Part shown: positions 4,860 through 12,377 of the stretch, piece by piece | Layout: every line of letters starts with the position of its first letter | How positions within the stretch are numbered: position 1 is the first letter of the stretch | Notes under the pieces: model-generated | Database searches by the model: none | Told to the model about the DNA's origin: nothing | What the model saw: the letters and a program-made list of their open reading frames with translations, nothing else | Program-made: the position numbers and the translations under genes | From: Nanobdellota archaeon | GTDB taxonomy: Archaea; Nanobdellota; Nanobdellia; Woesearchaeales; SM23-78 | Length of the DNA stretch: 18,003 nt | Direction: 5' to 3' | Assembly (NCBI GenBank): GCA_038046485.1 | Contig: JBBSWA010000019.1 | Span: forward strand, 1-18,003

Positions 4860-5582
4860 TCAACGAGGAGGAAAGGTCATAGACAAGCCATTTGGGAGCA
4901 GTTCTCCATTAAGGCCTTTTACATTCTGACCAAGAACTTCATAGCCAGAACGAAGAGCGTCGTCTTCAGAAGGATACACATCACAGGAGGGGAAATAAAC
5001 CGTAAGGAAGGTTTCTTTGGACAGTTTGTAAGAGAAGCCTGTTAAAACGACTTGTGGATGGCATTCATAGCGAGGGCGGGTTAAGGAAAAAATAACAGCC
5101 TCGTCTAAGACGATAAGTCTAGGTAATGGATCGGTAACAGTGCAAGCATATTTTTGTGGGATCATGGAACAAGCAACTTCAGAAAGAGAAGGCAGTCCAA
5201 GTGTTTCAGCGCGTTGATAAAGCGCAAGGAAGTTTTGGCGGGTGTTTTCATAATCTTCTGCATAAGGGAGTACCGCGGCTGCTCCATTGAAAGTGAGATG
5301 AAAATCACAGGCAGCAGGAGTGCAAGAGATCATTGCGCGAACTTTGTCCGGGTGTTGCGTTCCATAATGAAAGAGGGGGGTAATAACATTTTGAAATTGG
5401 TACGTTAAATCATTCAATGAGGTTTTTAGGCTGGTTCGAAGTTCTTGGAGTTCAAGAGGCCGATCAACTGAAGTAGAGGATGCCTGAGCAGACGCCGAAG
5501 AAGGGGATATGGGAGCAGGAAGTTGCAGAGGGGTATGGGTAAGAGAAAGGGCAGCAACCAATACGGCTAGACTATTTCGCAT
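4860..5582 (-). CDS. Predicted secreted Cys-containing protein, unknown function
   Basis: The likely start is MRNSLAVLVAALSL... at 5582, which lies about 27 nt from a TTTAAAAT TATA box on the minus strand. There is a signal-peptide-like N-terminus with an AQA motif and a P/S-rich linker. The mature part contains 7 Cys, and no family was recognised. Use of G/C-ending codons looks higher than in the neighbouring genes. Confidence 0.7.
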   Translation of the reverse strand: MRNSLAVLVAALSLTHTPLQLPAPISPSSASAQASSTSVDRPLELQELRTSLKTSLNDLTYQFQNVITPLFHYGTQHPDKVRAMISCTPAACDFHLTFNGAAAVLPYAEDYENTRQNFLALYQRAETLGLPSLSEVACSMIPQKYACTVTDPLPRLIVLDEAVIFSLTRPRYECHPQVVLTGFSYKLSKETFLTVYFPSCDVYPSEDDALRSGYEVLGQNVKGLNGELLPNGLSMTFPPR

Positions 5583-5603
5583 GGTCTTAGGAGAGGGGGT
5601 GTG

Positions 5604-5634
5604 CATTTTAAACCTTGGGGATAAGTATAAAAAG
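5604..5634. promoter_or_regulatory. Back-to-back TATA boxes for the divergent secreted-protein gene (minus) and gatE (plus)
   Basis: The minus-strand AAGGTTTAAAATG (5604-5616) is centred about 27 nt from ATG 5582. The plus-strand GTATAAAAA (5625-5633) is centred about 27 nt from ATG 5656. Both spacings fit leaderless transcripts. Confidence 0.45.
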
Positions 5635-5655
5635 GGCAAAAAACTAGGGAAGGAT

Positions 5656-7080
5656 ATGTCTTTAGACTATGCTCGGTTAGGGTTTAAGTGTGGTTTGGAG
5701 ATCCACCAACAGTTAGAGGGGGAAAAGTTATTCTGCCATTGTCCTACTCAGATCCGCAAGGAAGGCGCTGACTTTCTAGTGAAACGTCGTTTAAGAGCTT
5801 CAGCAGGGGAATCGGGCGCAAGGGATCAAGCAGCGGCCTTTGAGCAAGTCAAGCAAAAGGAGTTCATTTACCAGGGGTATCACGATTCCATTTGCTTGGT
5901 GGAATTAGATGAAGAGCCTCCCCACAATATAAACCCTCAAGCATTGCAAACCTCCATTCAAATAGCCAAGCTTCTCAACTGCAAGATCGCGGATCGGATC
6001 ATTTTCATGCGAAAAACTATAGTGGACGGAAGCAACACCTCGGCCTTTCAGCGTACCGCATTAATCGGTCGTAACGGATACTTAGAAGTGAATGGAAAAA
6101 AGGTGGGCATCACCGCGGTTTGCCTCGAAGAAGAAGCGTGCCAGGTCATGGAGCGAAAGGAAAAAGAAGATACCTACAATTTATCCAGGTTAGGGATTCC
6201 ACTCATTGAGATTGCTACGGACGCTTCCATCCATTCCCCTGAAGAATGTAAAATCGTAGCAGAAAAACTCGGGCTCATATTACGAAGTGTTCCGGGGATG
6301 AAGCGAGGCATTGGAACTATCCGTCAGGATGTGAACATTTCCATTAAGGGTGGTGCACGAACGGAAATCAAGGGGTTTCAAGAATACAAGGCCATTCCAA
6401 AAGTAGTTGATGTTGAAGTAATCCGGCAGTTGGATTTAGTCAAGCAAGGAAAACCCATTGATTCAGGCGTTCGAAAAGCCGAGGCCGATTTCACCACTTC
6501 TTTTTTAAGACCCATGCCAGGTGCCGATCGCATGTATCCAGAAACAGACGTCCAAATTATAATTCCTAAAATAGAGGAGCTGGCGAAAGTTGAATTATTA
6601 GAGGATAAAGCAAAGAAATTTATGGACTTAGGAATGAGTAAGGACTTAGCCATGAAGATCGTGAAATCAAGTGATTTGGCTTTGTTTGAAAATCTCTTAA
6701 AGTACAATAAGGTAAAGCCGGCCTTCATCGCAGAAACATTAATCTCCTATGATTCAGATATAAAAGGTAAATTCAAGGAAGCCGATCCGAAAAAGGTAAC
6801 TCCTAAACATTGGGAAGAACTCTTCAAAGAGTTGAATGAGGAAAAGATTGCAAAGACTTCAGTATTGGAAATTCTAGGAGACATTTGCACGGGAAAAAAG
6901 ATGGACTTGAAAAACTACGAAATTGTATCCGATGATGAATTAAAAAAAGAGCTGGAAAAGGTAATAAAGGAAAACCCTTCATCCCCCCCAGGAATGATCA
7001 TCGGTAAAATCATGGAGAAGTACAAAGGAAAAGTGGATGGAAAAAAGGTAGCTGAGTTAGCGAGCAAGATAAAGAGGTAA
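5656..7080 (+). CDS. gatE: Glutamyl-tRNA(Gln) amidotransferase subunit E, unusually short form (474 aa)
   Basis: The start MSLDYARLGFKCGLEIHQQLEGEKLFCHCP is a GatE-type N-terminus. Further matches are CLVELDEEPP, DGSNTSAFQRT, LSRLGIPLIEI, GTIRQDVNISI, RPMPGADRMYPETD and a C-terminal YqeY/GatB-type tail (IIGKIMEKYKGKVDGKKV). The ORF-track start at 5509 overlaps the divergent promoter region. Confidence 0.93.
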   Translation: MSLDYARLGFKCGLEIHQQLEGEKLFCHCPTQIRKEGADFLVKRRLRASAGESGARDQAAAFEQVKQKEFIYQGYHDSICLVELDEEPPHNINPQALQTSIQIAKLLNCKIADRIIFMRKTIVDGSNTSAFQRTALIGRNGYLEVNGKKVGITAVCLEEEACQVMERKEKEDTYNLSRLGIPLIEIATDASIHSPEECKIVAEKLGLILRSVPGMKRGIGTIRQDVNISIKGGARTEIKGFQEYKAIPKVVDVEVIRQLDLVKQGKPIDSGVRKAEADFTTSFLRPMPGADRMYPETDVQIIIPKIEELAKVELLEDKAKKFMDLGMSKDLAMKIVKSSDLALFENLLKYNKVKPAFIAETLISYDSDIKGKFKEADPKKVTPKHWEELFKELNEEKIAKTSVLEILGDICTGKKMDLKNYEIVSDDELKKELEKVIKENPSSPPGMIIGKIMEKYKGKVDGKKVAELASKIKR

Positions 7081-10006: not shown

Positions 10007-11104
10007 CTAATCCATCAGGTCCAAGTACATGGCAGCCCACAGCATGCCTTCATCACTCACGTGCAAAGCCGTCTTGTAGGGTTTTCCAAATGCATCAAAC
10101 ACTTCTAGAAAATTCTTATGGCGCTGGATGAGTTCAGTGTACTTTTTTAAATACACTTGGGCATAATTCAAATCGTACTTCTTTACAACCTGCAAGAAAC
10201 ACAATCCCAAGTGCATGAAGATGGCCGTGTGCTCATACTCCTTAGTCAACAATTGCACAGGAATCATACGGTGTTTAGCATGACCATTGGTATATTTTAG
10301 GGGAAAAGGCTGATCCAGGCCACTTTTGCGTAGCGTATCAAAGGCTTTTTGAAATCGTACTTTATCATCAAAGATCCCCGTCCAGAAAGGGAAGGTGGTG
10401 GCGTCCCCCGTAACAATGTTATGGCCCGAAAGGTCTTCTAAAAAGTGGGTTCCCGTCCAAAAATGGCGTTCGATGGTTTTAGCATAATCATATTGCTTAA
10501 GGGGGTTTTCAAGGCCTAACTTAGTGGCATAATGACTGAGCATGCCCAGCATGCAATTGGTATAGCAATCACTTTTACGAATAGCATGGTCTTTGATGCT
10601 GCTGACATGCACGTTTTTTCGAAGCAATCCAGAGGAAGGATCAATGTATTTTACGGCTTTTCGAATTTCGTTGTTAATGAAATCTTTGTGTTTTCGAACA
10701 AGGTCTTGAGCATCGGCAAGGGATAGGCTTCGTAAAAGGTAAGCGACAGATTCAGGGCTATACGTTGGAAAGTCAAAGGCCTTTCCTTGGGGAGTAATGG
10801 AGGTGGTTATCTTGCCACCTTTTTCAAAGCAGGTAAGAGCGTATTTTAGGGTATTTAAGACTTGGTTTTCATACCCCAAGTCCAATAGACTCTGCGTGCA
10901 CATGCCAAAGTCTCGGGTGTAAAACTGGCAGTAGTGCCCCGTGCTGGTCATGAAGTATTCATATTCATGGTTGTAGCAGTCCAGAATGATTTGGCGACAA
11001 ATCGCTTTTACATCACCAGGGTATTGGTTAAATCCCTTGCTATGAACATTTCGAGCTCGTTTGAAGATGCGCCAACCTTCTGAGATCATAGTAGGAGTAA
11101 TCAT
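10007..11104 (-). CDS. (alpha/alpha)6-barrel glycoside-hydrolase-like protein (GDE_C/GH63-like); function tentative
   Basis: The likely start MITPTMISEGW at 11104 is preceded by GGAGGA. The ORF-track start at 11197 would overlap the upstream VOC gene. The motifs YTRDFG and DEGMLWAA and the helical-repeat character resemble amylo-alpha-1,6-glucosidase-like barrels. The assignment is from memory only. Confidence 0.6.
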   Translation of the reverse strand: MITPTMISEGWRIFKRARNVHSKGFNQYPGDVKAICRQIILDCYNHEYEYFMTSTGHYCQFYTRDFGMCTQSLLDLGYENQVLNTLKYALTCFEKGGKITTSITPQGKAFDFPTYSPESVAYLLRSLSLADAQDLVRKHKDFINNEIRKAVKYIDPSSGLLRKNVHVSSIKDHAIRKSDCYTNCMLGMLSHYATKLGLENPLKQYDYAKTIERHFWTGTHFLEDLSGHNIVTGDATTFPFWTGIFDDKVRFQKAFDTLRKSGLDQPFPLKYTNGHAKHRMIPVQLLTKEYEHTAIFMHLGLCFLQVVKKYDLNYAQVYLKKYTELIQRHKNFLEVFDAFGKPYKTALHVSDEGMLWAAMYLDLMD

Positions 11105-11156
11105 AATATCCTCCAATACGAAAGGATTGTATTTAAAGGTATATGATGTGAAAGCC

Positions 11157-11555
11157 CTATTTTTGTGAAGGGAGTAAGATCTCCAGAAAATTCCCATCTG
11201 GATCTAAAAAAATCGTGATCTTACCATAACTGCGCTGTTCCGAACGAGTGAGCAGCTTTACTCCCTTTTTCTCAAGTTGTTGATTCATGGCTTCGAGTTC
11301 ATCTTCATCGTGAGCTTGAAATTGTACTAAAACAGGATTCTTTGTATTATACTCCCAAGTATACCTTTTTCGGTTGCTAACTGGTTCCAGAGCAAAAGTT
11401 GTTTTGCCCGTGTCAAAACCATACCAATTATCTTTTTCATTCATTCCTTTAAGAGGATTCATCCCAATGACATCTCGATAGAAACGTATGAGTTTAGAGT
11501 AATCTTCTGAGTACAAGTTGACATGACTGATGCGCCAATTTATTTTCTTTTCCAT
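11157..11555 (-). CDS. VOC-family (glyoxalase/bleomycin-resistance/dioxygenase fold) protein
   Basis: The start MEKKINWRISHVNLYSEDYSKLIRFYRDVIGM is preceded by GGTGGTGA. The C-terminal FLDPDGNFLEIL is typical of the VOC family. The 5' part of the ORF-track call (11556-11684) overlaps the tRNA gene and is rejected. Confidence 0.85.
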   Translation of the reverse strand: MEKKINWRISHVNLYSEDYSKLIRFYRDVIGMNPLKGMNEKDNWYGFDTGKTTFALEPVSNRKRYTWEYNTKNPVLVQFQAHDEDELEAMNQQLEKKGVKLLTRSEQRSYGKITIFLDPDGNFLEILLPSQK

Positions 11556-11584
11556 GCGATCACCACCTATAATTATAAAAAAGG

Positions 11585-11811
11585 CGAGCCTGGGAGGACT
11601 TTCATAGTTCACTACGAAGGTTTTTTGAACCAGCGAAGTTGCGTCAGCGACTTCGCGGCTCAAAGTTGTGAACGAAGTGAACAACTTTGAACCCCCGACC
11701 TACTGCTGTTTCCGCTTCTCGGCTGATGCTTTTGATACCGCAAGGGCACAGGTAAGCGATCGTCATCAAAGCTAGGAGGCAGTTGCGCTATCCAGGCTGC
11801 GCTACAGGCTC
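11585..11811 (-). tRNA. tRNA-Arg (anticodon CCT) interrupted by two introns: 65 nt at 37/38 and about 87 nt in the T-loop (59/60, or 56-59)
   Basis: This is a hand fold of the minus strand. The acceptor stem is GAGCCTG(11811-11805)/CAGGCTC(11592-11586), 7/7 paired. The D arm is GCGC-AGCCTGGATA-GCGC. The anticodon stem is ACTGC(11783-11779)/GCAGT(11706-11702), with loop CTCCTA+A. The variable loop is AGGTC. The T stem is GGGGG(11696-11692)/CCTCC(11597-11593), with T-loop TTCAAA+T. The discriminator is G and no CCA is encoded. The exons sum to 75 nt. Confidence 0.85.
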
Positions 11812-11835
11812 GTATCGTCGAAAAGGGAGCCCAGA

Positions 11836-11843
11836 TTTATAAA
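11836..11843 (-). promoter_or_regulatory. TATA box (TTTATAAA) for the tRNA-Arg gene
   Basis: The box lies 25-32 nt upstream of tRNA position 1 (11811) on the minus strand, which is the canonical archaeal spacing. Confidence 0.5.
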
Positions 11844-11897
11844 GGAAGCGGTGCCAGGCAAGTAAAGTTTATATATTCAAAGAAAAGGAAAAAGGGA

Positions 11898-12377
11898 ATG
11901 AAAAAAGAAGAGGATTTCTTTCAGACCAATCCTCAAAAAGCCTCAGCAAAGGTGACGATTAATTCATTTATGATGGGCAGTTTATTTTTTATCTTAACCT
12001 TAATCTGGTCGTTAAATCCGGAGAAATTCAGCCCCTCCATCATAGCTCAATTGGTTTTAGCAGTCCCTCTTCTTTTTATGTCGAGCCTTGCTTATTCAAA
12101 GATTGGGTATTGGAAAGAGATAAAACTCTGGGATTATCTAGGGTGGTTTACAAATAACATCGGAAATATTTTCATCCTAAACGTGATTGGGTTAATGACG
12201 GCCATGTTTTACCCAACCTTAGCATGGATCTATTTCAGTTTAATTATTGTGTTAATGGGAGTCTATTCTTGGATCAATTGCATATACAATCCCCATTCAT
12301 TGCGGGAGAAGGCGTTCAAACTGATCTTTTTCTTAGTGGTACTTCTGCTGGGCGGAATCTTACCTTCACTAACTTGA
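11898..12377 (+). CDS. Hypothetical integral membrane protein (about 4 TM helices)
   Basis: The ORF encodes 159 aa with hydrophobic segments (LFFILTLIWSL, LVLAVPLLFMSSLAY, IFILNVIGLMTAMFY, LIIVLMGVY, IFFLVVLLLGGIL). The TATA box AAAGTTTATATATT at 11863-11876 is about 27 nt upstream of the ATG, which fits a leaderless transcript. Confidence 0.75.
   Translation: MKKEEDFFQTNPQKASAKVTINSFMMGSLFFILTLIWSLNPEKFSPSIIAQLVLAVPLLFMSSLAYSKIGYWKEIKLWDYLGWFTNNIGNIFILNVIGLMTAMFYPTLAWIYFSLIIVLMGVYSWINCIYNPHSLREKAFKLIFFLVVLLLGGILPSLT

Follow-up and report, generated by a model that had tools for sequence, protein, structure and literature searches.

A stretch of 18,003 nt (positions 1 to 18,003 of contig JBBSWA010000019.1), referred to below as the window, carries a tRNA-Arg(CCU) gene that occupies 11811-11585 on the minus strand, is 227 nt long and contains two introns. 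The host is a DPANN archaeon represented by a Nanoarchaeota metagenome-assembled genome (MAG), and the protein adjoining the tRNA gene is deposited at NCBI as AABX70_02355 (Nanoarchaeota archaeon); the contig is recorded as ENA ERZ1292627, 'Hain_H51_01um', from the 0.1 µm fraction of Hainich groundwater. Once 65 nt (11772-11708) and 87 nt (11685-11599) are removed, the remainder forms a 75 nt cloverleaf that ARAGORN calls as tRNA-Arg(CCT). It is very probable, judging from the sequence and its orthologues, that this is a functional gene of a Nanoarchaeota/Woesearchaeota-type DPANN archaeon, the transcript of which is spliced at two bulge-helix-bulge (BHB) motifs. An initial annotation had proposed two introns in a tRNA gene with this anticodon, and all of the coordinates it gave for their positions and lengths hold when assessed with ARAGORN, BHB scoring and orthologues. 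The components of the gene are:

11836-11843, minus strand: TATA box TTTATAAA of a putative promoter, 25-32 nt upstream of tRNA position 1 (read from the sequence)
11773-11811, minus strand: exon 1, 39 nt, tRNA positions 1-37, comprising the 5' strand of the acceptor stem, the D-arm, the 5' strand of the anticodon stem, CCU and A37 (GAGCCUG-UA-GCGC-AGCCUGGAUA-GCGC-A-ACUGC-CU-CCU-A; ARAGORN on the spliced sequence)
11708-11772, minus strand: intron 1, 65 nt, at the canonical 37/38 position, with a relaxed BHB (ARAGORN -i, minimum free energy (MFE) fold and covariance model)
11686-11707, minus strand: exon 2, 22 nt, tRNA positions 38-59, comprising the 3' strand of the anticodon stem, the variable loop, the 5' strand of the T-stem and T-loop UUCAAA (A-GCAGU-AGGUC-GGGGG-UUCAAA; ARAGORN)
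11599-11685, minus strand: intron 2, 87 nt, in the T-loop at 59/60, with a strict hBHBh' motif and a long internal hairpin (BHB geometry and orthologues)
11585-11598, minus strand: exon 3, 14 nt, tRNA positions 60-73, comprising U60, the 3' strand of the T-stem, the 3' strand of the acceptor stem and the discriminator G (U-CCUCC-CAGGCUC-G; ARAGORN)
11577-11582, minus strand: run of six Ts, 2 nt past the discriminator, a probable transcription stop (read from the sequence)

In the spliced 75-mer, ARAGORN finds an acceptor stem of 7 bp, a D stem of 4 bp, an anticodon stem of 5 bp and a T stem of 5 bp, with the T-loop UUCAAAU. When intron 2 was deleted from the input, the intron search of the same program (ARAGORN -i) recovered both the gene and its 65 nt intron unaided, whereas the raw window yielded no call from ARAGORN, nor from Rfam at either the gathering threshold or E-values of up to 10. 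Hence the gene is invisible to these two programs, which is a limitation of the tools and not evidence against the gene. The uninterrupted tRNA-Arg(CCU) of locus L105, used as a stand-in for the spliced sequence, scores 68.5 bits on the Rfam tRNA model (threshold 29); the differences between the two are limited to an acceptor pair that is compensated and two substitutions on the 3' side of the T-stem, and pairing is kept in every case. All four cloverleaf stems also appear when the unspliced 227-mer is folded to its MFE without constraints, and the energy of this fold (-82.4 kcal/mol; z = -3.36) was equalled by none of 200 shuffled sequences.

BHB-like motifs lie at the junctions of both introns, strict in intron 2 and relaxed in intron 1, when the strict 3-4-3 geometry is scored explicitly at the proposed positions. 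In intron 2, the T-stem provides the outer helix (5/5 pairs), and U54-A57 (UUCA) forms the central helix with UGAA near the 3' end of the intron (4/4 pairs). The 3 nt bulges are AA^G and AG^U, with predicted cuts after the second bulge nucleotide, and the inner helix UUGUUCACU/AGUGAACUA has 8/9 pairs with a single U.U. Because this strict motif fixes the register, the T-loop junction is 59/60 and the mature T-loop is UUCAAAU; of the two placements originally offered, 59/60 therefore stands, whereas a junction at 56-59, giving TTCAAGT, is ruled out by the BHB register and by the T-loops of orthologues. Within intron 2 are the elements described at the outset, namely the 7 bp hairpin GCGAAGT/ACTTCGC, a GTTCAC/GTGAAC pairing and the T-arm-like GGTTCAAAAAACC, and inspection of this intron for a kink-turn or C/D motif revealed no convincing arrangement. 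The intron 1 motif was likewise anticipated to be relaxed, and both the MFE fold and the geometry scoring give it a central helix of 3 bp plus a C32.A mismatch, with a 5' bulge of 2 or 3 nt depending on the pairing of the first intron G.

A BHB motif on its own proves little. Strict-geometry BHBs with short flanking helices arise by chance about seven times per shuffled 227-mer, so the motif is not significant by itself and the argument rests on the register of the cloverleaf and on the orthologues; it is the latter, and not the BHB alone, that exclude chance.

The locus L103 is a JGI metagenome contig, and its sequence is also present as L083 (Nanoarchaeia archaeon SMAG_U8113). L103 and the window are syntenic, having the same gene order and 75-98% amino acid identity in tblastn searches with the window proteins. 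Its tRNA-Arg(CCU) gene has one canonical intron of 109 nt and lacks a T-loop intron: in the alignment with the window, 74 of the 75 exon positions are identical and intron 2 falls opposite a gap of exactly 87 columns. A second orthologue, L108 (GCA_041643055.1, contig JBGGHI010005950.1), was reached via homologues of the 159 aa protein neighbouring the tRNA gene in the window. Here the tRNA gene (L108:4009-4245, minus strand) adjoins the VOC gene, as it does in the window, and has three introns: a D-loop intron of 13 nt, the BHB of which is strict (central helix CUGG/CCAG), one of 64 nt at 37/38 and one of 85 nt at 59/60. Once all three are removed, the product matches that of the window at all 75 positions. 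Exon 1 is the same throughout L103, L083 and L108 (39/39), exon 2 matches L108 at 22/22 and L103 at 21/22 positions, and exon 3 is invariant in both (14/14). Introns are therefore precisely present or absent amongst the orthologues, one in L103 and three in L108, and the mature sequence of L108 is unchanged. Together, these analyses establish the exon/intron layout, the BHB geometries, the identity of the product with those of orthologues and the faster divergence of introns relative to exons.

Intron 1 is a member of a family of ten, the others being L016:2876-2938, L076:5210-5272, L008:4970-5033, L017:471-534, L042:330-395, L021:6552-6618, L034:224-301, L103:3149-3257 and one within L108:4009-4245. 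It is homologous to introns of 63-78 nt at seven other loci, as well as to the 109 nt intron of L103, with alignment z-scores of around 4. The sequence has the features of a probable kink-turn, the components of which are:

11760-11772, minus strand: bulged strand, consisting of stem GCUUU (11772-11768), bulge GAU and then G-A, with the box C variant AUGACGA at 11766-11760 (hand analysis)
11735-11749, minus strand: central hairpin of intron 1, GUGCC-CUUGC-GGUAU (MFE fold)
11714-11722, minus strand: non-bulged strand, consisting of the box D variant CCGA (11722-11719) and then stem GAAGC (11718-11714), which pairs with 11772-11768

Hence a kink-turn with C and D boxes and a terminal stem can be drawn in the window, but the boxes, AUGACGA and CCGA, are variants rather than the consensus. 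Across the family, box C takes the forms RUGAUGA, CGAUGA and, in the window, AUGACGA, and box D the forms CUGA, CCGA, CAGA and UUGA. All ten members have an NNU bulge and then GA beside the terminal stem, and NNGA followed by G is invariant. The stem itself varies between GCC/GGC, CGCU/GGCG, GCUUU/GAAGC, ACUUU/GAAGU and GGGCUU/GAGCCC; in an alignment of seven sequences its pairing is complete (100%), and two of its pairs have changed on both sides, as have three pairs of the central hairpin. The same stem serves both the kink-turn and the inner helix of the relaxed BHB, and the arrangement suggests that intron 1 probably binds L7Ae.

A covariance model of the intron, built from seven relatives with the window excluded, had its best match in the window at 11771-11710 (18.1 bits, E-value 0.0064; the next match had an E-value of 0.59), although these E-values are rough, as a chance match in a coding region of L061 reached a similar value in a larger search. 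No free-standing copies of the module were found by this model in 734 kb of related loci; the sole additional match was that in L061, which was rejected as a chance hit on account of its position inside a coding region.

It is possible, but in our judgement rather improbable, that intron 1 is a working box C/D guide nested in the tRNA gene, which would direct 2'-O-methylation of rRNA or tRNA after its excision; this would add to the splicing of the gene rather than replace it as an explanation. The 63-109 nt introns of DPANN tRNA-Arg(CCU) genes share the C box, the D box, the covarying terminal stem and a 12-mer, GAAGAGAGUUAG, which in most members immediately precedes the D box, the place expected for a methylation guide. 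Their length fits that of the 65 nt C/D introns of tRNA-Trp (PMC4090602), and the window intron was found by a model to which it had not contributed, although the roughness of the E-values weakens this point. However, there is no recognisable C'/D' pair, a hairpin being present instead, and a D'-like CCGA is confined to L103 and L108. The spacer on the 5' side is 8-11 nt long rather than 12, and that on the 3' side is 12-13 nt. The predicted targets of the consensus guide would be CUAACUCUCUUC-like sites. A search of the tRNA itself and of 800 kb of related DNA for complements to the guide gave only self-matches on the opposite strand; these loci are without rRNA genes. Furthermore, the guide region has diverged from the family consensus in both the window (CAAAAGCAUCAG) and L108 (GAAAGAGAAUAU), such that the function may have been lost in this sub-lineage, and an Rfam scan of 11450-11950 at E-values of up to 10 returned no small nucleolar RNA or small RNA (snoRNA/sRNA) family.

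Another explanation, which we regard as very unlikely, is that the gene is dead, an ancestral tRNA-Arg(CCU) broken by two insertions and no longer expressed or matured. Standard finders are silent at the locus; the T-loop insert is long, at 87 nt, has inverted-repeat ends and lacks detectable homology to the T-loop introns of distant relatives; and att-like duplications at tRNA 3' ends in related genomes indicate that the gene may be a target for insertion. However, relative to L108, the exons of the window gene are 100% identical whilst intron 1 retains only 66% identity and intron 2 only 79%, and a pseudogene would not stay perfect in this manner. The two ends of the T-loop insert pair into a BHB that is exactly 3-4-3 and keeps register with a T-loop of 7 nt. 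The promoter and T-run are conserved: the 39 nt upstream match L108 at 38 positions and the 10 nt trailer at all of them, with the TATA box TTTATAAA kept at the same distance upstream in both L103 and L108. In addition, compensatory changes in L108 preserve the intron helices, affecting the first pair of the intron 1 terminal stem (G1-C59, from G-C to A-U) and two pairs of the intron 2 hairpin (one G-C becoming U-A, the other G-C becoming A-U). This combination of exon conservation, intron divergence and helix preservation is expected of a spliced gene and not of a pseudogene. That only the anticodon-loop intron is real, with the 87 nt segment being an assembly or chimeric artefact, is scarcely credible. 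The contig does derive from a metagenome assembly, and L103, the nearest relative with full synteny, is without the segment. However, this contig is on record from three samples, a homologous 85 nt segment with 18 differences occupies the same place in L108, which was assembled independently in another project, and an artefact would not yield a perfect BHB.

If the gene is functional and spliced at both motifs, transcription from the TATA box (11843-11836) would produce a precursor of approximately 230 nt, in which EndA would cut the relaxed BHB at the anticodon loop (37/38) and the strict 3-4-3 BHB at 59/60, the latter arising from base pairing between residues 54-57 of the T-loop and the 3' end of intron 2. 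An RtcB-type ligase would join the three exons into the 75 nt tRNA, the predicted exon junctions being GCCUCCUA joined to AGCAGUAGG and GGGUUCAAA joined to UCCUCCCAGG, and CCA, which is absent from the encoded 3' end, would be added post-transcriptionally. Both introns would be released, probably as circles, with predicted junctions of GCGGAAAC to GCUUUGAUG for intron 1 and CUAUGAAAG to GUUGUUCAC for intron 2; the former would fold into a box C/D-like kink-turn, sharing its stem with the inner helix of the BHB, and would be a probable ligand of L7Ae. The enzymes, order of cutting and circularisation in this scheme are drawn from established archaeal tRNA biology, and L7Ae binding is likewise inferred.

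Certain observations do not sit easily with this scheme. The intron 1 BHB departs from the 3-4-3 geometry and is not an expected substrate of a strict alpha4 endonuclease; a tblastn search with Methanocaldococcus jannaschii EndA as the query found no match in the window or in any retrieved DPANN locus; and this contig has no gene for either EndA or RtcB. Outside these lineages, tblastn does place an EndA homologue within a few hundred bases to around 1.5 kb of intron-less tRNA-Arg(CCU) genes in the Nitrososphaeria (L029, L065, L072, L077 and L081).

A pattern scan of species-representative genomes, based on the D-arm and anticodon, identified 101 tRNA-Arg(CCU) loci, labelled mostly as Woesearchaeota, Nanoarchaeota, Micrarchaeota and Iainarchaeota, with a minority of Methanosarcinales, Nitrososphaeria and others. 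A canonical intron of 13-170 nt is present in about 45 of them. Introns at 59/60 are found in five, all DPANN tRNA-Arg(CCU) genes, with lengths of 12, 12, 39, 47 and around 84 nt; four of the five have a BHB of strict geometry, that of L024 being relaxed, and three also have a canonical intron. Homology between intron 2 and the T-loop introns of the more distant L024, L018 and L053 was undetectable by alignment (z < 1), and these introns are likely to be either independent gains or too diverged.

Two further features of these loci concern the tRNA gene. In L105 (98-275), L043 and L070, the last 18-19 nt of an intact tRNA-Arg(CCU) recur as a direct repeat around 100-130 nt downstream of the gene. 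The repeat extends from approximately 59/60 in the T-loop, the site of the 59/60 introns, to the 3' end and trailer, and resembles the att duplication that integration of a small element leaves behind. Several loci labelled 'uncultured Methanosarcinales archaeon' (L003, L008, L009, L018, L040, L043 and others, from binchicken/TPA MAGs) have DPANN-type tRNA-Arg(CCU) genes and intron families, and are syntenic with the GatD, GatE and 396 aa genes of the window; their Methanosarcinales label looks wrong.

The two-intron tRNA-Arg(CCU) gene is of a known type of architecture, in a lineage with earlier reports. Multi-intron tRNAs with introns at non-canonical positions had initially been associated mainly with the Thermoproteales and a few other archaeal lineages, but the host is a DPANN archaeon, and both 59/60 introns and multi-intron genes are already documented in that group (PMC3239211, PMC5829648). 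ARMAN-2 has 59/60 introns and two introns within the T-loop, and cleavage at 59/60 by a DPANN EndA was demonstrated in vitro on pre-tRNA-Cys (PMC3239211). The window gene resembles those of ARMAN-2 in its DPANN host, its 59/60 T-loop intron, its more than one intron per gene and its mixture of strict hBHBh' and relaxed motifs. However, it is a different tRNA from a different DPANN phylum, its 59/60 intron is 87 nt long rather than 13 nt, and it has a long canonical intron in addition; moreover, cleavage was shown directly in ARMAN-2, whereas here it is predicted. Disrupted tRNA genes in DPANN archaea, including Woesearchaeota and Pacearchaeota, have been associated with EndAs carrying an 'L3' insertion, and the literature points to alpha4 enzymes with this insertion in DPANN lineages (PMC5829648). 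As 59/60 introns, multi-intron tRNAs and matching endonucleases have thus already been published for DPANN archaea, the window gene is not of a new kind.

Reports on Thermoproteales and other Crenarchaeota (Sugahara 2007, 2008, cited in PMC4090602 and PMC3239211) describe similarly organised genes, with up to three BHB introns each at canonical and non-canonical sites, and rapid intron turnover between close relatives. These, however, belong to another superphylum, and their endonuclease is (alpha-beta)2 with a crenarchaeal loop. For intron 1, the closest comparison is with the box C/D intron of pre-tRNA-Trp(CCA), which (Omer 2000; Clouet d'Orval 2001; Singh 2004; summarised in PMC4090602 and PMC7994747) is likewise around 65 nt long, lies at 37/38 next to a CCN anticodon, has C- and D-box-like elements at its ends and has a terminal stem abutting the BHB. 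The same sources describe the tRNA-Trp intron as having both guide units and as complementary to the C34 and U39 of its own tRNA. By contrast, the Arg(CCU) intron lacks a C'/D' pair, is not complementary to the tRNA in which it lies, yielded no target in the searches above and is at most a putative member of the C/D class. According to one review, the tRNA-Trp C/D intron is 'a unique example' of an archaeal tRNA intron that houses a functional unit (PMC4090602).

Relative to this known type, what the locus adds is a series in which close relatives have one, two or three introns, together with the conserved kink-turn intron family. We advance only tentatively, as something short of probable, the joint proposal that there is a previously undescribed kink-turn intron family specific to DPANN tRNA-Arg(CCU), constituting the second nested L7Ae-binding or guide module after that of tRNA-Trp and having a stem that is the inner helix of a relaxed BHB, and that the one, two or three introns found with an identical mature tRNA in a narrow Nanoarchaeota clade represent very recent gain or loss outside the Thermoproteales. 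Should the kink-turn bind L7Ae or guide methylation, it would widen the class that currently holds the single known functional RNA nested in an archaeal tRNA intron; a second family of tRNA introns with a functional unit would be of moderate interest. The intron series around one mature tRNA is useful for studying the gain and loss of BHB introns and the substrate range of DPANN endonucleases. There is also a consequence for annotation: since genes such as this one escape both ARAGORN and Rfam, AGG codons would seem to have no decoder in a DPANN genome. Undetected disrupted tRNAs are reported to remain in DPANN genomes, the tRNA sets of which look incomplete as a result (PMC5829648). Overall, the initial annotation was correct in both observation and interpretation, subject to refinement of the T-loop junction, the lineage and the extent of the adjacent open reading frame (ORF), whilst it missed the kink-turn signatures of intron 1.

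The ORF in question belongs to the gene downstream of the tRNA:

11157-11555, minus strand: VOC/glyoxalase-family gene, 132 aa, outside the tRNA gene, with its ATG start at 11555

A longer ORF of 175 aa (11157-11684) does, as had been pointed out, run through the 3' part of the tRNA gene, but it was rejected in favour of the ATG at 11555. The Pfam Glyoxalase match begins at residue 8 of the ATG-started protein, the public gene call is for 132 aa, and the orthologues in L103 and L108 begin at the same Met. Hence the tRNA gene is masked only in the naive ORF list, the deposited call being the 132 aa VOC gene. The run of six Ts beyond the tRNA overlaps TTTTATAA, a possible TATA box of the VOC gene.

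The other genes of the window include archaeal GatD and GatE, threonyl-tRNA synthetase (ThrRS), lipid-synthesis genes and adenylate kinase. GatE (5509-7080, plus strand) is short, at 474-523 aa relative to a family profile of 620-630 positions, and matches this profile in two separate stretches, suggesting that an internal domain of the canonical protein is missing. The 396 aa protein (10007-11197, minus strand), which has no Pfam or NCBIfam family, is encoded near tRNA-Arg(CCU) in many Woesearchaeota-type loci, with identities of 41-86% in L103, L003, L080, L051, L022, L017, L086, L009, L060 and L008, and is thus a conserved but uncharacterised neighbour. The matching ORF in L103 carries no such match either, and the Peptidase_S66-like annotation at a similar position in L108 concerns only a different adjacent gene. 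Divergent from the tRNA gene is the 159 aa protein (11898-12377, plus strand), also without a Pfam family, the homologues of which, at 55-70% identity, come from DPANN archaea and from records labelled as candidate phyla radiation (CPR) bacteria (Staskawiczbacteria, Vogelbacteria, Paceibacterota and Patescibacteria); the CPR-labelled sequences could reflect either inter-domain transfer or mis-binning.

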